Shown piece after piece: positions 17,816 to 28,252 of a stretch of DNA of 64,000 bases. The stretch spans positions 7,661-71,660 of the forward strand of contig CALOBL010000013.1 of assembly GCA_942491655.1 (NCBI GenBank), read 5' to 3'. Every line of letters starts with the position of its first letter. Within the stretch, counting starts at the first letter, position 1. The stretch comes from Candidatus Cloacimonadaceae bacterium. Its GTDB lineage: Bacteria > Cloacimonadota > Cloacimonadia > Cloacimonadales > TCS61. The notes beneath the pieces are model-generated. The model saw only the letters and a program-made list of their open reading frames with translations, ran no database searches and was not told where the DNA came from. The position numbers were made by a program, and so were the translations under genes.

Positions 17816-20800
17816 TTGAAAACTGAGAAAAAACAGTCGGACATAATGGTAGAATTGAACCATTATCAGAATGCGAATAGCGAAAATTCAGATGTTAGTA
17901 TCGATGAGTTGTTTCTAGCATTCTGCAAAGCTTTTGATCCTGAATTAATAATTTCCGCAGCAGACAGTAACTTTATTGATTTTCTCCGTTTTTCAGAATT
18001 TTCAGAAAAAATGAATTCTGAGAACAGGTTTTATTTCTTCGATCTAGTAGCAAAGATCTTCTGGTTACTGGGTAATTTAGAGCAGGTCACTTACTACCTG
18101 AAGAAATCTTTTGAAATAGGATTGGATACAACTTCAAGTAATTTGAATGAAGGATTTTATTATTTCCTGAGTTCAGATTTTAACAAAGCAAAAAAAGTAT
18201 TGAAAAACCTTCCGGAAGATGCGGCAGAATCGAAGATCCTGCAAGTACTCCTTTTTACAGAGTCAGGAGAGTTCACCTCATATTTGGAATCACTTCTGGA
18301 ATTAGAAGCAGATATTTTTAAGGATATCAGGTTTAGCTGGAATGTTTGTGAAACTGCGGAAAGACTTAATTTGGATCAGCTTCACAGAGAGTATCTCTAT
18401 AAAGTTTCAGAGATCAAGAGGAAATCACCTGCTAACTCGTATAAAATTGCTCAGATCCTCTTTGAAAAAGTGAAGAACAGTAATCTATTCGATCCTGATT
18501 ACATTTCCAATAACGAGATGGAAGATCTGCAGAAGGCTGCTAACCTCTTCGAAATGCTGGTTACAGATCCAGCTGTCCACCAGGGTTGTTTAGCTAAGAT
18601 CCAGACCTCATTAACAGAGATCTGTAATTATACCGGGCAATATGAGAAGTCACTGCATTATTTCAATGAGATTGATACCCGGCTTTTGGATCGCGGGAAA
18701 CAGTTATTTAAAATAAACCTCCTGTTAAAGTTAGATAAAGTTCCTGAGGCGGAAAGAGAAGTGGATAAGCTGCTAAAAACAGATCCCAAGGATTCTGACC
18801 TGATCGCATTAAAGGGTGATATTTATTTAAGAACAGGGAAATATGAAAGTGCTCTGGGAATTTGTGGAACAGGGCTGAAATTCTCCAGCACTGGGATACA
18901 TAGAGGTCTTATTTCAGGTAAAGCAAGAGCCCTTTATTTTTTAAAAAGCAGCACAGAAACCGAAGATTTTCTTCTGGAGATATTTGAAGAAACTCATGAT
19001 ATTTATTACATAATAAATCTGCTTTATATTAATCGCAGATATATAAGTTTAAGAAAAGTAGCCAAATTATATGTGACTTACATAAGCAAAGAGCTTAAAT
19101 CTCTGGACAGAGCTCAGATCAACCGTCTGGCCATGTTCATGTATAATTTCCCGTTTTATGAATTAACCGCCAAATTGCTGGCTTCGATATATTTTCCTCA
19201 AATAAATACAGAACTGGCTGAAGCCTATATAATCTCGCTGAATAAAACAGATAAGAAAATGCATGCCCTGAAATTTGCGCAGGAGATCAGGATAACCGGG
19301 AAAAATGAGGACCTGATTCCCCTCGAAAGCTTCCTGCTGGAAGATACAGGTCATCTGGATTATGCATTGAAAATATCCGGGATGTACTACCAAAAGACGA
19401 AAAATCAGCTTTCAGCTGTAAATTACTGCAAATATCTTCTAAAAAGTAATAAGCTAGAAGCTGCCAGAAAGTTACTGGACACAATCAGTGATATCTCAGT
19501 TCTTCCCAATTCTGTAATGGATCAATACATTTATTGCCTTATTAAATCAGGTGAAAATATCAAAGCATTTGAGATCCTTGATAATTATTGTGAAACCAGA
19601 AAAGATCACGATGATATCTGTAACTACTTCATCAGCAGGTTCTTCATCGTTTCCAGACTGCCGGAAGTTGATGAATATCTGCGGGGATTCAGGGCTAAAA
19701 TCCAGAAAGATTCAGGGTTAATTCTGAGAAATGACGAGAATGAATCTGTATATTTTGTTATAAATGGAAGTTTCAGCCTACCAGACAGCATTTATTCCCC
19801 GGAAGAAGAGTTTTTAGAAGAGCTTCTGGAAAAGAAATTGGATGATGCGGTTCTGCTGGAGCAGAATAATTCCGAAAAATTATTTAGGATCGTCGAAATA
19901 ATGCATAGATCCGTTCTGAAGTGGAAGATCCTGACTATGACTGAAAAAAAACTAGAAGTAAGACAGGAATTCGGACAACAAGAGCGGGAAAAGATACAAA
20001 TTGAAGAGATCGAAGAGATCTTCGGTAAAGGGGCTCAATTATTATCTGATTTCACTTTTGAGCAATGCGTTTTTTCAGACATGTATTCCTTACGAAAGGT
20101 TAATTTCGGTATCCTTTCCACTTTGAAGAATGTAAATCTGGTCAACACTATTTTCCACACTATGTTCAAACCTGAGATCAGATACCAGGCAATCAGAGAA
20201 AATAATATTAAATTTACCAAAGCCCGGCAGGATCTGGAAGAGACGGACATGATCATGATCGATATTACCGGCTGTATTATGTTAACACATCTTGATCTCT
20301 GGCGGGAGGCAGCACATTGTTTTAAAAGGATCTATGTAGCCAAAAGTACAATAAATCTGCTGGAAGCTTCGATTAGAGGCAATGCAAAAAAATTGGGAGA
20401 AAGTTTCGGGGCGATTGGTCTGACCGGAAACATAATTAATTTTATTACTACTGCAAAAATACAGGAAGATAACTGGCAGAAGAACATATATATGATCATA
20501 ACCCTGATCGAAAGGAACTGCATTGTAATTGAGGAATCGAGCAAATTCAACCTGGGTCCCTACAAGGAAAAACTTAAAGGATTAAATACCAGATTAAGAA
20601 GTGCTGAAGGTAATAGTTTTACAGATTCCATGGCTATAGCTCACCTTTATCATGCAACCTATTACACTGATGATGAGGTGATGCGGAATATCGCCGGAGA
20701 ATCCGGACTGACCACTATCTGGAGTCAACCTTTAATGGCTTATCTGTTTAAAAAGAAGATCATATCTTTAGATAAATATTTCCTGTTAACTACTGAATTG

Positions 20801-21157
20801 CTAAATATTAATTACGGATTTGTCTTTCTCACTATTCCTATTCTGGTTAAAGCAATTAAGAACAGCTCTTTCAAACTGGATACTACCATGATCCATTATC
20901 TGGATTGTTTTTTTCAATCAGATTTTAATTATATATCCAATATCGGTAGCTGGTTCTTGTACTATGCCATCAAATCATTCCCCATGTTCTTGGAATCTAA
21001 CGATCTGATCATGGCTTTTTTCAACAGGTTTTACTCTAAAACCAAAGATCTTGATAAATTGAAAGAATTCATCAATCTGATCTATAAAAGAACCAGTAAT
21101 GTTGAAATATCCAATCTGCTGCTGACGAATTTTATAAAGTTCAAGAAATATTATTAA
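17816..21157 (+). CDS. Large cytoplasmic TPR-repeat protein with a possible C-terminal PIN-like nuclease domain
   Basis: 1113-aa intact ORF with no signal peptide and TPR-like helical repeats. C-terminal acidic pattern MIMIDITG ... LLEASIRG ... SFTDSMAIAHLY ... YYTDDEVMRNIA resembles the four PIN acidic positions. Start is uncertain (TTG 17816 or ATG 17846). Confidence 0.55.
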   Translation: MKTEKKQSDIMVELNHYQNANSENSDVSIDELFLAFCKAFDPELIISAADSNFIDFLRFSEFSEKMNSENRFYFFDLVAKIFWLLGNLEQVTYYLKKSFEIGLDTTSSNLNEGFYYFLSSDFNKAKKVLKNLPEDAAESKILQVLLFTESGEFTSYLESLLELEADIFKDIRFSWNVCETAERLNLDQLHREYLYKVSEIKRKSPANSYKIAQILFEKVKNSNLFDPDYISNNEMEDLQKAANLFEMLVTDPAVHQGCLAKIQTSLTEICNYTGQYEKSLHYFNEIDTRLLDRGKQLFKINLLLKLDKVPEAEREVDKLLKTDPKDSDLIALKGDIYLRTGKYESALGICGTGLKFSSTGIHRGLISGKARALYFLKSSTETEDFLLEIFEETHDIYYIINLLYINRRYISLRKVAKLYVTYISKELKSLDRAQINRLAMFMYNFPFYELTAKLLASIYFPQINTELAEAYIISLNKTDKKMHALKFAQEIRITGKNEDLIPLESFLLEDTGHLDYALKISGMYYQKTKNQLSAVNYCKYLLKSNKLEAARKLLDTISDISVLPNSVMDQYIYCLIKSGENIKAFEILDNYCETRKDHDDICNYFISRFFIVSRLPEVDEYLRGFRAKIQKDSGLILRNDENESVYFVINGSFSLPDSIYSPEEEFLEELLEKKLDDAVLLEQNNSEKLFRIVEIMHRSVLKWKILTMTEKKLEVRQEFGQQEREKIQIEEIEEIFGKGAQLLSDFTFEQCVFSDMYSLRKVNFGILSTLKNVNLVNTIFHTMFKPEIRYQAIRENNIKFTKARQDLEETDMIMIDITGCIMLTHLDLWREAAHCFKRIYVAKSTINLLEASIRGNAKKLGESFGAIGLTGNIINFITTAKIQEDNWQKNIYMIITLIERNCIVIEESSKFNLGPYKEKLKGLNTRLRSAEGNSFTDSMAIAHLYHATYYTDDEVMRNIAGESGLTTIWSQPLMAYLFKKKIISLDKYFLLTTELLNINYGFVFLTIPILVKAIKNSSFKLDTTMIHYLDCFFQSDFNYISNIGSWFLYYAIKSFPMFLESNDLIMAFFNRFYSKTKDLDKLKEFINLIYKRTSNVEISNLLLTNFIKFKKYY

Positions 21158-21361
21158 AGTTTTGTAAACATTTCTTATTTTAAAGGAAATATACCGTGAT
21201 TGATATAAAAAACCGCTCGGCACTGGTAAATTGATTAATTGATGATGGAAATTGAAAAAACTAAAGTAAAAAACCTGAATATCCGATAATGAATAGCCAA
21301 CGCCCAATGTCCAAGTTTTACGAACAACACTTCATCATTCGATATTGAATGCTTTATGCGG

Positions 21362-21429
21362 GTTCCTAAACTTTTAAACTGTTTACCTTGTTGTATAACA
21401 GGGCTGCATAACAGTTCCTGTTTAGGAAC
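21362..21429 (-). repeat. Family-1 hairpin element, inverted copy
   Basis: Its reverse complement matches 383-450 at 67 of 68 nt. Confidence 0.85.
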
Positions 21430-21460
21430 CTTAAATTCTGGATAATTTGCCTTTTTACGC

Positions 21461-21505
21461 GTTCCTAAACTGCTAGGGTATGCACCCCGGTAAAAGTTTA
21501 GGAAC
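21461..21505 (+). repeat. Family-1 short variant (GTTCCTAAAC-tgctagGGTATGCACCccggtaaaa-GTTTAGGAAC)
   Basis: Perfect 10-bp terminal inverted repeats. The flank ggaacgagcg is shared with the 3923-3990 copy. Confidence 0.75.
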
Positions 21506-21695
21506 GAGCGATAGTTGCACACCTTTCTCACCCTTCGGAACGGTTCTGAATCTTCCGAAGATTTTATTCTTAAACCTAAAAATCATTGTACTTGTTACGC
21601 TGTCCGTTCTCCGTAGTAGTTTACTACGAAGGATGAAAGTTTATCGAAGGGTAACATTGTCTCAGGACAATTCATTCTCACTTATTATACTTTGA

Positions 21696-21766
21696 CCTGT
21701 CTTCGCTAATCCACCCTCCGAAGCATTGCTTCTGCGGAGGACGGGAGCTTCGCCAAGTCAGGCAGC
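21696..21766 (-). repeat. Family-2 interspersed repeat, inverted copy
   Basis: cctgtcttcgctaatccaccctccgaagcattgcttctgcggaggacgggagcttcgccaagtcaggcag aligns with the reverse complement of 4024-4103. Confidence 0.7.
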
Positions 21767-21962
21767 TCAGTATATACTGTGCAGTAATGACAATTAATTA
21801 TCTCTAAATAATCCCCGATCCACACTCACTTTTTGCCCATTTGGGGCAAACGTTCGCTGCGGATCAGGTCTTATAAAGAACAATTCATAATATCCAGGTT
21901 AATATTAACGCTGTCAGCAGGGGTTTGAAGACGGCATCATGAAAGTCAAGTGAAGTGCTTTG

Positions 21963-22211
21963 TTATGCCTTTTTGTCTTCAGCTTCTTTAACGCGAATTC
22001 TGTTACTGGCAACTTCCGTAAAATTCATGCCTTTTATCGCTGATTTGGCTTCTTCTGGATTCGGCATTTCAACAAAAGCAAAACCCTTGGATTTACCGGT
22101 AGTTTTGTCTAACACCAGATCACAAGATTGTACTGCGCCATATTCTTCAAAGAGAACTTTTATTTCTTCTTTCGTAGTACTACGATTAAGATTAAGAATT
22201 ATTAATTTCAT
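21963..22211 (-). CDS. RRM-type RNA-binding protein
   Basis: RNP-2 (LIILNL) and RNP-1 (KGFAFVEM) motifs; 82 aa; AGGGGGA RBS. Confidence 0.9.
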   Translation of the reverse strand: MKLIILNLNRSTTKEEIKVLFEEYGAVQSCDLVLDKTTGKSKGFAFVEMPNPEEAKSAIKGMNFTEVASNRIRVKEAEDKKA

Positions 22212-22329
22212 AAGTCAATATCCCCCTAAATGTCTAGTTATCCCACAGGAGTCCATATTTTTTGCATATAACGCCTCAATTTTGAGGTGCGTTTACGCGT
22301 TCATATCATTTGTTTGCTAGTTTATTCGA

Positions 22330-22533
22330 TTAAAGCGGAACAACTTTAGTAGCGCATGGACCCTTTTGTCCTTGGCCGACTTCATACTCTACGGCTTGGC
22401 CGTCATTAAGGGTCGTAAAGCCTTCACCTTGAATTTCAGAATGATGCACAAAAAGATCTTTGCCTCCATCCTCTGGGGTAATGAAACCAAACCCTTTATT
22501 TGCATTGAACCACTTAACTGTACCTTTACTCAT
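22330..22533 (-). CDS. cspA: Cold-shock protein (CspA family)
   Basis: [34 protein letters not shown] is the canonical cold-shock domain with RNP1/RNP2; AAGGAG RBS. Confidence 0.95.
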
Positions 22534-22618
22534 GTTTTTCTCCTTTGTTATGGTGAACGACTCTAGATATCACGATTCCAATTCACAGCTTGAAAATCGA
22601 GGTAATAATATCCTAACA

Positions 22619-22777
22619 CTAGATATCACTATTTTTAGTAGTATCTTCATCCTCAGCTAACGGGACTTGATCAGTTTCAGCACTTTTAGCCAACTTTTTT
22701 AGCCGTTTTTCTTCCTTTTTCTTCTTTTTTGCAATTTCTTTCTGTCTTTTTTCGTACGGATAATTAGTTTTTGCCAT
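22619..22777 (-). CDS. Possible small Lys/Glu-rich protein (52 aa) upstream of cspA
   Basis: ORF MAKTNYPYEKRQKEIAKKKKKEEKRLKKLAKSAETDQVPLAEDEDTTKNSDI lies below the ORF-track cutoff. Its ATG overlaps (TAATG) the stop of a 38-aa ORF at 22777-22893. It could instead be part of the csp 5-prime leader. Confidence 0.25.
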   Translation of the reverse strand: MAKTNYPYEKRQKEIAKKKKKEEKRLKKLAKSAETDQVPLAEDEDTTKNSDI

Positions 22778-23123
22778 TAGAATTCTCTTCCCTTAGTTTG
22801 GAAATAAGTGATGTTTGCATTAAATACATAACATCGCGATTTATTTCGGTTTTCACAGTTCAATTCTCTTGTACCTTCGCAGTATTGTTTCATTTCTTAA
22901 TTGCACCTCCTCAAAGAAATACACATATGCATTGCATATTTTAAAAAACCGTTTTCTGTCAATTCATATAATAACATGCAAAATAAACATTAAAAAACAT
23001 TTTTTGATTAGAAGTAGCTTAATTGGCTATTTGACTTTGCTTCGAACATTGCTCCAAACAGAATGTGTAAAATCGTGTAATTCTTATTTATCGGTCTTCC
23101 GGGATCTTATTTTAATACAAAAA

Positions 23124-23774
23124 TCAGATCAAACTGTTGATCAATAAGTAAATATCTTTGATCTTCAGAATCCCGTTTAAAATATAATCTCCTGAGAGTT
23201 CAAATCCGCCCAGAACAAAAGTAATGATGATGCCGTAACAGAAAATATTGGCAAAGATCAGGAAAACCGTTGAAAAAATCTTACCACTTTTAATTATATC
23301 AGGTTGCCGATAACTAAACTCCTGGCAGGTGGAAAGGAAATGATATGCTGTTAAGATTCCGAACAAGATAAAATAATAATTATGGAATTGTGGGCTCAGT
23401 ATCAAATAAACAGGAAGAATGAGAAAGACAAGGGTAGGAAGAAAATATGGTGCCAGCGTAATGATGAAATTACTGCCATAGAGCACAGTTGACCCACCTT
23501 CTCCATCCGTGGCATGAAAACCTACCGGTCTCTTGAAAAAGATCAGACCAATTATCAAATGCGTAAATTCATGCTCAAAGGTCGAGAAAAAATAACGTCG
23601 ACGTAAAAATATCAACCAGGCCAGGGTATAAGGGATAAAGCCGTAAGCAAAACATCTGATCGACGCTTGTTGGAGGTTAACGGATTTACAGATCAGAAAT
23701 AAGCTGAAACCATAACTTACCGCAAAAACCATACTTAGAATCATCACAACAAATTTCAAACTCTTCATATTCAT
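23124..23774 (-). CDS. Membrane protein with HExxH motif (DUF3267-like putative zincin)
   Basis: About six hydrophobic helices; FEHEFTHLIIG contains HEFTH. Confidence 0.45.
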   Translation of the reverse strand: MNMKSLKFVVMILSMVFAVSYGFSLFLICKSVNLQQASIRCFAYGFIPYTLAWLIFLRRRYFFSTFEHEFTHLIIGLIFFKRPVGFHATDGEGGSTVLYGSNFIITLAPYFLPTLVFLILPVYLILSPQFHNYYFILFGILTAYHFLSTCQEFSYRQPDIIKSGKIFSTVFLIFANIFCYGIIITFVLGGFELSGDYILNGILKIKDIYLLINSLI

Positions 23775-24219
23775 CCCTTACAAGATTTTGTATTAAAATC
23801 ATTATTTCAATTCTACCCTTAGATAACAAGAAAAAAAATCGGCCTAGGGAGTTTAAATTGATCTGACCTTCCTAAATATTAATGAACAACCCCGGGGCAG
23901 AGACCCGAGGTATCAAAACAACGGGAACAATCTTTAGTTTTGTGTAAACCCCATTATTCTACAAGTTACAGTTTTCAATTCTATCTTCAAATAGGATCTG
24001 GAGCTGCGAATATATTTGATCTCATTTTTTATGTTTACCGGAATAAAAGTAATTGAAACCAGAATAAATATCTTACAGTTTGGGAATTAGATTCCCATAA
24101 TGTAATAAATGGTGGAGATTATGATTAAAAGAAATATTGAAAGTTCTCTTCAAAAACTTCAAGGATTCATTACTGTTCTTAATTTATAAGGATATATAAT
24201 TGATTCAATTCTTATTTAT

Positions 24220-24371
24220 ACAATTTAAGGGTTCAAGTCCAGATCGATTATTAGTTACCTTTTTATGTGGTTGATGCTCTTAAAACAGTTGAAGTTTCTA
24301 AAGGGAATCACCCATTTAGAAACTTCTAATTTGAATTTGCTTTAGCTAATTCAAACTGGCACGCCCGAAAG
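24220..24371 (+). repeat. Copy 1 of a perfect ~152-bp direct repeat, ending in the last 15 nt of tRNA-Arg (including CCA)
   Basis: Identical by reading to 24483-24634. Begins with TTAAGGGTTCAAGTCC, a T-arm sequence in the orientation opposite to the gene. Contains the 12-bp stem gaagtttctaaa/tttagaaacttc and ends ctggcacgcccgaaag. Confidence 0.9.
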
Positions 24372-24388
24372 CTATCAAATTTGCATTC

Positions 24389-24423
24389 GCAAATTTAATT
24401 TAGAAGTTTCCTGCGAAAACTTC
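24389..24423 (+). repeat. Short hairpin repeat, copy of 147-182
   Basis: gcaaatttaatttagaagtttcctgcgaaaacttc compared with gcaaattgaatttagaagttttcttcagaaaacttc. Confidence 0.6.
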
Positions 24424-24482
24424 AGGAATACATTATTGTTCACATTTTATCAGTGTAAATAATTGGATCGATTATTATTGAA

Positions 24483-24634
24483 ACAATTTAAGGGTTCAAG
24501 TCCAGATCGATTATTAGTTACCTTTTTATGTGGTTGATGCTCTTAAAACAGTTGAAGTTTCTAAAGGGAATCACCCATTTAGAAACTTCTAATTTGAATT
24601 TGCTTTAGCTAATTCAAACTGGCACGCCCGAAAG
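24483..24634 (+). repeat. Copy 2 of the ~152-bp direct repeat, overlapping the 3-prime end of the tRNA-Arg gene
   Basis: Identical to 24220-24371. The repeat period is 263 bp. Confidence 0.9.
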
Positions 24635-24696
24635 GACTTGAACCCTTAACCCTCTGATCCGAAGTCAGATGCTCTATCCAATTGAGCTACGGGCGC
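24620..24696 (-). tRNA. tRNA-Arg (anticodon TCG), CCA encoded
   Basis: Reverse strand reads GCGCCCG-TA-GCTC-AATTGGATA-GAGC-A-TCTGA-CTTCGGA-TCAGA-GGGTT-AAGGG-TTCAAGT-CCTTT-CGGGCGT-G-CCA. This folds into a full cloverleaf with a G1-U72 wobble pair. Confidence 0.9.
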
Positions 24697-24787
24697 GCAT
24701 ACAGATTGCAAAAATATTTTGACCGTTTTTGTTGTCCAATCTTTTTTGTTTGCTATTATGTAATAAAGTCCATAAAAGGAGAGAATA

Positions 24788-25512
24788 ATGAATAAAGTAT
24801 TTTATTTACTTATTACTGTTATATTTACAGTAAGTACCCTGGCAGCACAGAAAATGCACGAAGGTGAAGATCCCTTCATGAATTATTATAATGAGCAGAC
24901 TAACGAAAATTTAATTGAGGCTATTAATTATCTTTCTAATCTGGTGGAACCGAGCAGGGTCTGGACAGCAGGATAAAGCTTTCCAACCTCTATGTAATGG
25001 CTCTGGAAAAAGAGTTAGGCAGTCTGGCGGCAGATTTGGACAGTTTGACAATGATGAATAAATTCCAATATGCAAATTTATTATTAGCTTTGAACCGTAA
25101 TGATGAAGCAATTCCGATCTATGAAGATCTCAATGCTTCTGCTCCAGCCTGGTCCTGCCCCTGGCGTCATAAGGGTGAAGCTTTTTTTAAATCCAGTCGT
25201 CTGGAAGAAGCAGAAATAGCATTAGAAAAAGCTATTGAAACCAGAGTAGAACATTATGATGCTTATGTAATGATGGCTGATGTTAAGAACGAAATGGGCA
25301 AATATAAAGAAGCCCTGGAAACGTTGGAGACTGGTTTTACCTATCTGGGGGAAGATATTGAAGATCCGGCAGAAGAAGTAAATGATCTGGATGTAAAATT
25401 TCTTTATCTGGAACTGCTCAGGAAGAATGATCGTCAGGAAGAATACAACGAACTGAAAATGAAGTTGCAGAAGATCGCACCTGAAGATAAAAGATTAGCA
25501 GAAGGAATGTAA
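24788..25512 (+). CDS. Secreted TPR-like protein, apparently split by one frameshift near 24950
   Basis: The signal-peptide ORF 24788-24976 runs into ORF 24997-25512, whose frame is open back to 24940 (SGGTEQGLDSRIKLSNLYVMALEKE). TPR-like helices follow. Confidence 0.5.
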
Positions 25513-25582
25513 AAAAACTGGTCAGTTGTGAACCTGAAGCAACCATCAGTAAAAGAGTATCAAAAAAAAGAATTTTCCGGAA

Positions 25583-25606
25583 AAGCCCTTTAATCAGGGC
25601 TTTTTC
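25583..25606 (+). terminator. Rho-independent terminator
   Basis: Stem aagccct/agggctt followed by a T-run. Confidence 0.6.
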
Positions 25607-25714
25607 TATTATATTACAGTTAAATCAACATTTTTTGATTGTCAAATTTACTGATCTGATGTTTGGAACATTTATTGCAATTTAATCAATATTAATAAAA
25701 TCTATGGGGGTTTC

Positions 25715-28252
25715 ATGAAAGTTACTGATATTTTGTTTATTATTTTTTTATCATTTCTTATAATTAATCTTAATGCTGCAGAGAAAATGGTAGTACGTTT
25801 TAATGAACCCAACTTGCAGATCGTGCGGGAATTTCGTAATGATCAGCACGATGTGGCTTCTTACAGACCGGGAGAATATCTAGATATCGTAGTAACCGAA
25901 TCCTTTTATAATGAGCTCAAAGCACGCGGTCTGGATATTTCCATTACCCAGACGGAAGCGCAATTGAAAGAGAATCTTCAATCCACCCGTGAACTGGATG
26001 GTTATCAGACACATGCTGAGATCAATGGTCAGATGCTTTTGTATTCCTACCTTTATCCTGATATCTGTGAACTGCATGTACTGGGTGATACGTGGGGTAA
26101 AACCTATTATGAAGCAGGAAATGATAATTATTATGACTATGATCAGGAGATCTGGGGACTGAAATTATCTGATAATGTTTCCGAAGAAGAAGATGAACCA
26201 TGTGTTTATTATTTCGGAGCTCATCATGCTAGAGAACCCATCAGCGCAGAAATGACGATGACAATTCTGGATCATTTGCTTTCTAATTATGGTACAGATC
26301 CTGAGATAACCGAAAGCATAAATTCAACCCAGATCTGGTTCATTCCTGTTGTAAATCCCAACGGGCACAAGATCGTAACAGATGAACTGGATGTCTGGTG
26401 GAGAAAAAATATCCGGGACAATAACGAGAACGGCATGTTGGATGAAGAAGATTATGGTGACTATCTGGATGGAGTTGATCCCAACCGTAATTACGGATTT
26501 GAATGGGGTCTGGTTGGAGCTTCAGACCTTTGGGAAAGTCAAACCTATCACGGTCCTGGTCCAATTTCCGAACCGGAGAACCAGGTTGTGGCAGAGCTTA
26601 TCGGAGCTCATCATTTTATCGCCGGCATCAGCTATCATACTCATGGAGAATGGGTACTATTTCCTTATGGTTACAGCGACGGTGTAATGGCCCCGGATCA
26701 TGACGCTCTGCAGGAACTTGCCGTTGCCATGGCGGAACAGATACCTTCTCAGGATTATGGATATTATACACCAGCCGAAGCCTGGGGTTTGTATCCCTGT
26801 ATGGGAACCCTCGATGATTATGCCTATGGGGTCAGAGGTATTTTCTCTTATACCATTGAAATGGCAACTCAGTTCATTCCTCCAGCTGCTAATGTTCCCT
26901 TGATCTGTGAAGACAATCTTGACGCCGCATTAACTTTATTAGATAGAAAAAATCACTCCATTTTAACCGGGCACGTTACTGACAATGCAACTGATCTTCC
27001 TCTGGTAGCTGAGATATTTATCGAGGGCATTGATAACTCCGAAGAATTCCGTTACCCGTATCTTTCCAATGAACTCTATGGCTCTTATTACAGGCTTCTT
27101 ACCGATGGTTTTTACGATGTGACCATTTCTGCTTATGGTTATAGCTCACAAACTTTTGAAAATATTGAAATAACTTCTGCTGAGCAGACTATCCTGAACG
27201 CAGCATTAGATCCTGTACCCTATACTTTTCTTTCCGGAAATGTTTATAATGCTGATACAATTGAACCGGTGGAAAATTGCCGGATAGAAATCATTGATAC
27301 ACCATTGGAAGCCGTTTTCACTAATTCTGAAGGAGCATACGAATTCTCTGATGTTGCCGTTGATACTTACCAAGTTCTACTTACGGCAGCAGGTTTCTCT
27401 TCCCGTTTGGAAAGTATAACCCTGGAAGAAGAAGATAATGTTATAAATTTTGTGCTGGAAGTTTCGGAAGCTGAAAGTTTTGAACTGACTGAATTCGGCT
27501 ATGAATGGTCCTCAATCGGGGATGCCGATTGGTTCATAGATAACAATGAATCTTATGACGGATTCCATTCCGCTCGTTCCGGAATTATCGGCAGTATGGA
27601 ATCAACTTCTCTTCTCATAACACTTAATGTTATTGAAGAAGATGAAATAAGCTTTTATAAAAAAGTCTCCTGTGAAGATGATACCAGCAACGATAATTTC
27701 GACTACCTGCTCTTCCTGATAGATGATATTGAAATGGGACGTTGGGATGGTGAAATAGACTGGAGTCTTGAAACTTTCACAGTATCGGCAGGGCAGCATA
27801 CTTTTGAATGGCGTTACGAGAAGGATGGCTATGTATCTTCCGGTTCAGACTGTGCCTGGATCGATTACGTCGAGCTTCCTGAATATGATAATACCTCAAG
27901 CCAGGAAACCGAAGATTCACCTGTAAGCATGAAGTTGTTCGGTAATTACCCGAATCCATTTAATCCGGAAACAGTAATTTCCTTTAGTTTAAACACCCGT
28001 CTTCGTTCCAATGATGGAAACTACGCCGGGCAGGCTGAGAACACGGAGTTGTGTATTTATAATGCGAAAGGACAGAGAGTTAAATCTTTCTTTTTATCCT
28101 TCGACTCCGCTCAGGATGACCAGGAAAGCAGCAGAAAAGTTATCTGGGATGGAACTAATGATGCCGGCCAGCCAGTCTCTTCCGGGATTTATTTTTACAA
28201 ATTACAATCAGGAGATAAAAGCCTTACCCGAAAAATGGTATTAATGAAATAA
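25715..28252 (+). CDS. Secreted M14 zinc carboxypeptidase with CarboxypepD_reg-like domains, a jelly-roll-like module and T9SS CTD
   Basis: Signal peptide; zinc/catalytic motifs GAHHAREPIS, NPNGH, DPNRNY, SYHTHGE; C-terminal NYPNPFNPETVISFSL...GIYFYKL...RKMVLMK with repeat-derived loop inserts. Confidence 0.85.
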   Translation: MKVTDILFIIFLSFLIINLNAAEKMVVRFNEPNLQIVREFRNDQHDVASYRPGEYLDIVVTESFYNELKARGLDISITQTEAQLKENLQSTRELDGYQTHAEINGQMLLYSYLYPDICELHVLGDTWGKTYYEAGNDNYYDYDQEIWGLKLSDNVSEEEDEPCVYYFGAHHAREPISAEMTMTILDHLLSNYGTDPEITESINSTQIWFIPVVNPNGHKIVTDELDVWWRKNIRDNNENGMLDEEDYGDYLDGVDPNRNYGFEWGLVGASDLWESQTYHGPGPISEPENQVVAELIGAHHFIAGISYHTHGEWVLFPYGYSDGVMAPDHDALQELAVAMAEQIPSQDYGYYTPAEAWGLYPCMGTLDDYAYGVRGIFSYTIEMATQFIPPAANVPLICEDNLDAALTLLDRKNHSILTGHVTDNATDLPLVAEIFIEGIDNSEEFRYPYLSNELYGSYYRLLTDGFYDVTISAYGYSSQTFENIEITSAEQTILNAALDPVPYTFLSGNVYNADTIEPVENCRIEIIDTPLEAVFTNSEGAYEFSDVAVDTYQVLLTAAGFSSRLESITLEEEDNVINFVLEVSEAESFELTEFGYEWSSIGDADWFIDNNESYDGFHSARSGIIGSMESTSLLITLNVIEEDEISFYKKVSCEDDTSNDNFDYLLFLIDDIEMGRWDGEIDWSLETFTVSAGQHTFEWRYEKDGYVSSGSDCAWIDYVELPEYDNTSSQETEDSPVSMKLFGNYPNPFNPETVISFSLNTRLRSNDGNYAGQAENTELCIYNAKGQRVKSFFLSFDSAQDDQESSRKVIWDGTNDAGQPVSSGIYFYKLQSGDKSLTRKMVLMK

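Follow-up and report, generated by a model that had tools for sequence, protein, structure and literature searches.

An arrangement that matches the one described here is found at the tyrT and tyrV genes of Escherichia coli. The 178-bp tyrT repeat has been known since 1978, and RtT RNA is described as being cut from the transcript at the tails by tRNA-processing enzymes; the tyrT/tyrV repeats and the RNA reportedly go back to Egan and Landy in 1978 and Bosl and Kersten in 1991. To our knowledge, they have stood without explanation for decades, and we know of neither a function for RtT nor a described version with cargo genes. Here, we analysed a 64,000-nt stretch (hereafter the window) of contig CALOBL010000013.1 from a Candidatus Cloacimonadaceae bacterium, in which a tRNA-Arg(TCG) gene is followed by two units that carry copies of its 3' end (its tail). 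On balance, it is probable that such a unit is a module that was inserted at the tRNA 3' end, has no recombinase of its own and is co-transcribed as a trailer RNA.

RtT family members near other tRNA genes are reported to be expressed as discrete RNAs on Northern blots (PMC4986893), and one report indicates that the presence of RtT differs between Erwinia strains (PMC7542023). Islands at tRNA genes offer a second comparison; tandem accretion and integrase-less cis-mobilizable elements (CIMEs) that keep their att sites are reported for them (PMC5704250, PMC6323972), and tycheposons (10.1101/2020.12.28.424599) and the ssrA islands of Dehalococcoides (PMC3146451) were taken as comparison islands from the corresponding reports. 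The source genome (G000) is a 2.48-Mb metagenome-assembled genome (MAG) of 23 contigs, 65% complete and AT-rich outside a segment of contig C6.

A tail-bounded direct repeat behind tRNA-Arg(TCG)

The tRNA gene lies on the minus strand, which an earlier, sequence-only reading of the window had overlooked together with a genome-wide family of hairpins and the match to the tyrT/RtT layout. On this strand, the order from 5' to 3' is tRNA/tail 1, trailer x, inverted T-arm, spacer y, tail 2, x, inverted T-arm and y' (Table 1). Direct comparison bore out the repeat reported earlier: positions 24220-24371 and 24483-24634 are identical over 152 bp with a period of 263, and the bases flanking both copies differ. 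As had also been noted, each copy holds the final 15 nt of the tRNA including CCA (CTTTCGGGCGTGCCA on the tRNA strand), which at tail 1 are at the same time the opening 15 nt of unit 1. The plus-strand 16-mer TTAAGGGTTCAAGTCC begins at 24225 and 24488, and its reverse complement lies within the tRNA at 24634-24649, confirming an exact 16-nt inverted repeat with the T-arm; on the tRNA strand the inverted T-arm reads GGACTTGAACCCTTAA, and no further copy of the 16-mer occurs elsewhere in the window. An exact 16-nt inverted repeat combined with an exact 152-nt direct repeat is far beyond chance. A perfect 12-bp stem, GAAGTTTCTAAA/TTTAGAAACTTC, was likewise correctly described for both copies (24291-24326 and 24554-24589).

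Two of the earlier statements hold in part. Each copy was said to begin with the inverted T-arm, which is indeed present, but on the strand of the tRNA the tail comes first and the inverted T-arm later. The copies were called undiverged, which is true of the 152 nt but not of the adjacent leftward extension, where 24141-24219 and 24404-24482 agree at 58 of 79 nt (73%). Tandem Repeats Finder gave a 263-nt unit in 1.8 copies at 24153-24634, and the 263-bp unit contains no open reading frame (ORF).

The seemingly unique stretch between the two copies (24372-24426) is a member of a dispersed double-hairpin repeat of about 55 nt, here called D, with approximately 25-30 copies in the source genome, mostly intergenic. 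Compensatory changes preserve its two stems: 89% of cells are paired, compared with 22-52% in slid controls. None of the other D copies in this genome has a flanking duplication; therefore, D alone does not explain the tRNA-tail repeat and was rejected as its cause. A Y1/RAYT (REP-associated tyrosine transposase) driver was also rejected, since no convincing RAYT-type gene was found and just one 24-bit Y1 transposase match was obtained in the source genome and its sister genome (G001). Another D copy is located at 131-183 of the window (nhmmer E=3e-13) and is the same motif that the earlier reading had placed at 147-182, and 7-8 tandem copies with a 77-nt period stand directly after the end of a zinc-ribbon-like ORF on another contig (G000:C3:15348-15861).

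Table 1 Features of the tRNA-Arg(TCG) array in the window
Feature	Position	Strand	Remarks
tRNA-Arg(TCG) gene	24620-24696	minus	ARAGORN and Rfam tRNA, 66 bits
Tail 1, tRNA-Arg(TCG) 3' end	24634-24620	minus	
Unit 1, complete	24372-24634	minus	263 nt: tail, trailer x, reverse-complement T-arm, spacer y, double hairpin
Trailer x of unit 1	24504-24619	minus	hp1-like hairpin 24596-24616; hp2-like hairpin with 12-bp stem 24554-24589
Inverted T-arm of unit 1	24488-24503	minus	exact 16-nt reverse complement of tRNA nt -30 to -15
Spacer y of unit 1	24487-24372	minus	ends in the double hairpin
Double-hairpin repeat D	24372-24426	plus	adjoins tail 2; hp1 24377-24397, hp2 24403-24424; nhmmer E=1.9e-14
Tail 2	24357-24371	minus	second copy of the tRNA's final 15 nt, including CCA
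Unit 2	24141-24356	minus	older, partly decayed
Trailer x of unit 2	24241-24356	minus	identical to unit 1
Inverted T-arm of unit 2	24225-24240	minus	identical to unit 1
Spacer y' of unit 2	24141-24224	minus	73% identical to y; hp2 degenerate
Putative decayed terminal tail, AATCATAATCTCCACCA	24110-24126	minus	looks Ser-type, not Arg-type; lies where the module alignment places a tail; tentative
Promoter-like site, TGGACA-16-TATTTT	24711-24738	minus	directly upstream of tRNA-Arg(TCG); consensus match only
Terminator-like GC-rich hairpin	23889-23911	minus	downstream of the array; consensus match only

Related modules at other tRNA genes

We named the module family of tRNA-Arg(TCG) E2. The sister genome carries the layout of tail, x, inverted T-arm, spacer, D and tail at three tRNAs, namely, tRNA-Ser(GGA) with a period of 172, tRNA-Arg(ACG) with a period of ~203, and tRNA-Arg(TCG); its contigs break at repeats in several E2 loci. 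The block formed by inverted T-arm, spacer, D and tail can be aligned between the two genomes. Among the 62 family genomes searched, E2 was found only in these two, which belong to one genus, and E2 is genus-specific as far as this survey reaches.

One contig of the sister genome (C29, L024; 3,644 nt) represents a larger version. Its two ends fall within one and the same D sequence and overlap by 37 nt; it starts with D, 66 nt and the inverted T-arm, and ends with hp1, tail and D. Its cargo of ~3.4 kb encodes, in this order, AbiEi and AbiEii (a toxin-antitoxin pair), a membrane protein and a winged helix-turn-helix (wHTH) regulator, and no recombinase was found on the contig. From the order of the module parts, this cargo is placed between tail/trailer and inverted T-arm. 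This contig may represent a circular molecule, or else a cassette flanked by two identical copies of the module.

A second family, E1, is more widespread. On contig C19 of the source genome, tRNA-Ser(GCT) is followed by two 187-nt units, each opening with a 19-nt tail; the third tail is mutated (CCACTA) and passes into unrelated DNA. The tRNA-Arg(TCG) of another genome (G008) is followed by two E1 units and a mutated third tail; because the units within this array differ by a few bases, arrays of the E1 type are not assembler artefacts. E1 occurs at Arg(ACG/TCG), Ser(CGA/GGA/GCT) and Val(GAC) tRNAs in ~20 of the 61 other family genomes and is always co-oriented with the tRNA. This count includes only matches covering the inverted T-arm, core or hairpin part; the raw tally (28/61) was inflated by bare tail matches, as the query began with the tRNA tail. 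E1-related units are also present in two public Cloacimonadota MAGs, whereas none were found in ~140 genomes from other families of the order. The layout is not confined to the tRNA-Arg(TCG) locus, as the sequence-only reading had considered possible for the unit; it also occurs at other tRNA genes in the source genome, the sister genome and the family.

The E1 unit consists of a tail, an AT-rich spacer, GGGATGAGAACC (a reverse complement of the T-arm that differs at two loop bases), GAGTTCGACCACGAGCTGGAATC, stem-loop A, GCAGCGAAGTAGCGC, stem-loop B and the next tail. In the block of two stem-loops, 98.4% of cells are paired and 21 of the 25 pairs show compensatory change; slid controls gave 27-54%, and neither these nor shuffles approached E1. 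Rfam matched only tRNA in the E1 loci, and the E1 core had 0 matches in viral contigs. E1 also has a cargo version (G160), in which tRNA-Ser, a mini unit and a mutated tail are followed by 2.4 kb of genes (encoding a leucine-rich repeat (LRR) protein and a protein without assignment), the conserved block, an intact tail and a host lipoprotein gene.

Some further elements were observed beside the E1 arrays. In three genomes of two genera (L074 of G080, L047 of G129 and L059 of G121), the last E1 tail is interrupted at the same position by a conserved insert of 52-112 nt (AATCCTCTCG/CCTGTTAGGGCGTAGTTGAATTCT...CTTTAACGAAGACTAA/GGCGTGCCA, the slashes marking its borders), which may be another small tail-targeting element. 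A conserved element of ~85 nt (...CGGCTTGYGA..GAGCAAACG....GGCTTTSCG....ATCGGTTTT), ending in a terminator-like hairpin, stands just after the terminal tails of L029/L049, L054, L055, L047 and L057 and follows arrays of Arg and Ser tRNAs in several genomes. In the source genome, a forward D copy directly follows tRNA-Ser(CGA) (L002, G000:C13:142178-142373), with GGGGATGAGAACCC 110 nt downstream and the rest of E1 missing; this locus looks like a remnant or hybrid of E1 and E2.

Comparison was extended to the tyrT/tyrV region of E. coli K-12, where six copies of the 19-nt tRNA-Tyr tail, including CCA, bound four RtT units that score 133-138 bits with RF00391 (gathering score 45 bits). Each RtT unit holds GGGGAAGGAT-GA-GAAGCTTCGA, the T-arm reverse complement with a two-base loop change as in E1, and in three of the four there is one extra mismatch (GAAGC for GAACC). 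The AAGGTTCGACTCGAGCG that follows it resembles the GAGTTCGACCACGAGC of E1, and the blocks GGATGAGAAnC, GGTTCGACnnGAGC, GCGAAG.AGCG and AATCC are common to both. RF00391 did not match E1 at E<=10, nor did it match window positions 22500-26500 at E<=1, where tRNA was the only Rfam family found. A covariance model built from 15 E1 blocks placed the four RtT units at ranks 1-3 and 5 among 28 matches, as full-length, in-register alignments (E 0.1-1.9), lending weak but consistent support to a distant relation of E1 to RtT.

In all three families, E2, E1 and RtT, the inverted T-arm matches the adjacent tRNA. The longest exact reverse-complement match is 16, 15, 14 and 13 nt for E2 at four different tRNAs, up to 12 nt for E1 and 10 nt for RtT. 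The E1 copy even tracks rare variants, such as a TTCAAAT loop (G140), an AGGAG stem (G107) and CCAGG stems at Ser tRNAs.

Regarding the surroundings of the array in the window, the family shares synteny on the 5' side of tRNA-Arg(TCG), where an M14 carboxypeptidase and a TPR protein are encoded, and not on the 3' side. The sequence TTGGACA..AAATATTTTTG at the promoter-like site also precedes tRNA-Arg(TCG) in the sister genome and at L029. If the terminator-like hairpin is functional, units 1 and 2 both lie between the tRNA and its terminator, and if the promoter-like site works as well, they would be transcribed with the tRNA. The next ORF downstream of the array (216 aa) is missing from the sister genome. 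A TPR protein of 1113 aa encoded at 17816-21157 has a PIN domain of the PIN-TPR-GreABC type, and ~2 kb between its gene and the 216-aa ORF (21157-23124) hold no long ORF.

Proposed insertion at the tRNA 3' end and its alternatives

Modules are present or absent at orthologous tRNAs and occur in 1-3 copies, and some have genes lodged behind the proximal tail and ahead of the inverted T-arm. Displaced terminal tails are often decayed, which fits displaced tRNA ends. Judged by these sequence patterns, the modules behave like recombinase-less insertion cassettes. Of the options named in the sequence-only reading, a miniature tRNA-targeting element is the best supported, since the tail-bounded layout recurs within the source genome and the wider family as well as in the sister genome, there once with cargo.

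Insertion would proceed by site-specific recombination within the tRNA tail, for which a trans-acting recombinase would be responsible, most likely a tyrosine integrase. The block of inverted T-arm, hairpins and tail would act as the attachment site; each module supplies a replacement copy of the final 15 nt of the tRNA, which leaves the gene intact. With the tRNA on one side of the array and a terminator-like hairpin on the other, co-transcription is probable, as is release at the tails by enzymes that process tRNA, in the manner described for RtT. The co-transcribed structured RNA that the earlier reading had also considered is compatible with this arrangement, with E. coli RtT as the precedent.

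Candidates for the recombinase were sought among several types of enzymes. Tyrosine integrases are common in the family, and integrase islands occupy the same tRNAs as modules (L075, L101), with a tail-adjacent arm unrelated to that of the modules. In two genomes (G008 and G131), an integrase island is located at tRNA-Ser(CGA) just proximal to E1 units; the one in G008 (L075, G008:C61:9000-13500) contains three adjacent tyrosine recombinase genes of 375, 352 and 357 aa. A matching recombinase in the source genome, the kind of evidence suggested by the earlier reading, did not emerge: the sole PF00589 gene encodes a 461-aa phage-type integrase (C6:4500-8300, L026), regarded as foreign because its DNA, at ~65% GC, is unlike the AT-rich rest of the MAG. 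This segment is likely contamination or part of a chimeric contig; native hairpin repeats occur further along the same contig. A tail-like match beside an integrase gene of the sister genome (G001:C544) lies within coding sequence and was a false lead. Bridge RNAs of IS110 elements were discarded, as PF01548 was not found in G000, G008 or G080 and no module lies near its three copies in G001, and so was a TnpB/omega-RNA system with the tail as guide, PF07282 being found in 0 of the 5 genomes tested. Phage and plasmid collections gave no match.

Several observations weigh against insertion by an enzyme acting in trans. Neither E2 nor E1 has a linked recombinase, and none was found in the native part of the 65%-complete source genome; the absence of an integrase at the insert, reported earlier, was upheld for the units, and tblastn with the recombinases of 11 loci found no recombinase or integrase remnant in the window. 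In the tRNA-Ser(CGA) islands, the arm beside the 27-28-nt tail is unrelated to E1. The integrase clade of these islands is present in 8 of ~20 E1-positive and 11 of ~41 E1-negative genomes, which shows no clear association in a set where the genomes are interrelated and many are incomplete. An inverted T-arm that matches the local tRNA is not expected for an attachment arm recognised by a protein. At the locus itself, unit 2 has no recognisable Arg-type terminal tail, and 152 bp of identity beside 73% identity needs a further event, which may have been gene conversion or a second related insertion. Additionally, no sequence relation of E2 to E1 or RtT was detectable, and two exact-pattern scans for independent metagenome contigs with the locus or the hairpin block gave 0 matches.

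Local tandem duplication of a native trailer by unequal crossing-over or slippage, later homogenised in part by gene conversion, would require nothing mobile. The copies are adjacent and identical over 152 bp, hairpin repeats that could promote slippage are abundant in the region, and the lack of a recombinase in the units, the window and the native DNA of the source genome agrees with it. However, a simple event of this kind, which the earlier reading had offered as a very recent duplication, fits poorly: it predicts 263 identical bases, and the unit instead shows 152 identical nt, 79 at 73% and 32 unrelated. Moreover, at least 8 different tRNA genes in several genomes have the repeat boundary within their T-stem/T-loop, related modules stand at different tRNAs, each with a matching tail, cargo versions are bounded by the same module ends, and other copies of the hairpin repeat produce no flanking duplications. 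We regard local duplication as unlikely.

A primary role as RtT-type trailer RNA appears similarly doubtful. Here, the tails would be processing signals, the inverted T-arm would pair with the tRNA or its precursor and so tune maturation or act on the tRNA in trans, and insertion would be secondary. In favour of such a role, the Rfam structure of RtT closes on a helix of the inverted copy with the tail, RtT RNAs near other tRNA genes are reported on Northern blots (PMC4986893), the E1 block shows strong compensatory change, and the array is framed by a promoter-like site and a terminator-like hairpin. When tRNA and unit are folded together, the predicted structure contains a 16-bp helix of T-arm and anti-T-arm (z = -8.3). 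However, the inverted copy in E2 is not paired with the tail, which leaves the RtT closing helix missing, and compensatory change is equally expected for DNA hairpins recognised as single strands. Decaying terminal tails and variable copy number also argue against strong selection on every unit.

The match of the inverted T-arm to its local tRNA points either to base pairing that involves RNA or single-stranded DNA or to a copy taken from the target. A bolder proposal, which we hold to be rather improbable, is that inverted T-arm and tail are two nucleic-acid guides, the former pairing with the top strand left of the insertion point and the latter with the bottom strand on the right. Such a cassette system would re-programme itself to each tRNA and be run by a recombinase acting in trans or by a host enzyme; RtT-like modules would be self-targeting cassette ends from Enterobacteria to Cloacimonadota, and the tyrT repeat one of their products.

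An assembly artefact, in which two strain variants of one locus were joined into a false tandem, is highly improbable: perfect repeats in a MAG of this completeness and fragmentation are suspicious, but the junction of hairpin block and 15-nt tail must exist in real DNA for such an assembly path, and the architecture recurs in independent assemblies with small differences between units and in the finished K-12 genome.

The layout of the tyrT repeats, with tail, inverted T-arm, covarying hairpin block and next tail, is now found in a distant phylum, where some copies hold defence genes between the same module ends. The finding suggests a widespread mode of inserting small cassettes at tRNA 3' ends that needs no resident recombinase, with RtT-type repeats as its footprint or its active ends. 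The locally matching inverted T-arm provides a concrete, testable clue to target recognition. In annotation, such arrays should not be taken for scars of lost prophages or for assembly errors.

Comparison with known element classes

Palindromic repeats of the REP (repetitive extragenic palindromic), REPIN (REP doublet) and MITE (miniature inverted-repeat transposable element) types resemble repeat D, which is dispersed, mostly intergenic and has stems kept by compensatory change. Unlike in those repeats, the tRNA-tail duplication is not a property of D, and the 263-nt unit has neither inverted repeats at its termini nor the short target-site duplication of a MITE: its 16-nt inverted repeat pairs the tRNA T-arm with an internal site instead of joining the two ends of the unit, and its direct repeat is 15 nt of tRNA. 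Integron cassettes are likewise recombinase-less units, some with one to few genes, that are stacked and each end in a structured element resembling a recombination site. In contrast to them, the modules have no IntI and no attC/attI features, and their anchor is the tRNA tail.

The E2 array also resembles tRNA islands and CIMEs. As in tRNA-integrated islands, the tRNA is intact and its 3' end recurs as a displaced direct repeat; an integrase inside the element is missing, and, as in CIMEs, the flanks are att-like repeats without genes for recombination and transfer. Stacking at one tRNA, the distal displacement and decay of older tails, the lack of a recombinase in some elements and the defence-type cargo (AbiE) of the larger E2 version are shared features. 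However, the modules measure 170-260 bp rather than kilobases, no parent element combining this arm with an integrase was found, and the conserved arm itself consists of two covarying hairpins plus an inverted T-arm matched to the local tRNA.

The tyrT repeats and RtT share several features with the modules, namely, tandem units of ~180 nt that lie 3' of a tRNA in the same orientation, are bounded by tails, contain the T-arm reverse complement and are rich in hairpins. E2 itself is located directly 3' of the tRNA gene on the same strand, with unit 1 starting inside the tRNA 3' end, and its tandem units (1.8 copies) are bounded by 15-nt copies of the tRNA 3' terminus including CCA. It differs from E. 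coli in the length of the tail (15 versus 19 nt) and in its 263-nt unit, and it lacks the blocks common to E1 and RtT. The closing helix between an inverted tail copy and the distal tail is also absent: the inverted copy of E2 spans only the 5' half and loop of the T-arm (tRNA nt -30 to -15), of which just GG:CC could pair with the tail. With these likenesses and differences in sequence and layout, the most fitting reading of E2 is that of a genus-specific representative of a broader class of tRNA-tailed, RtT-like trailer modules, to which E1 and the tyrT repeats would also belong.
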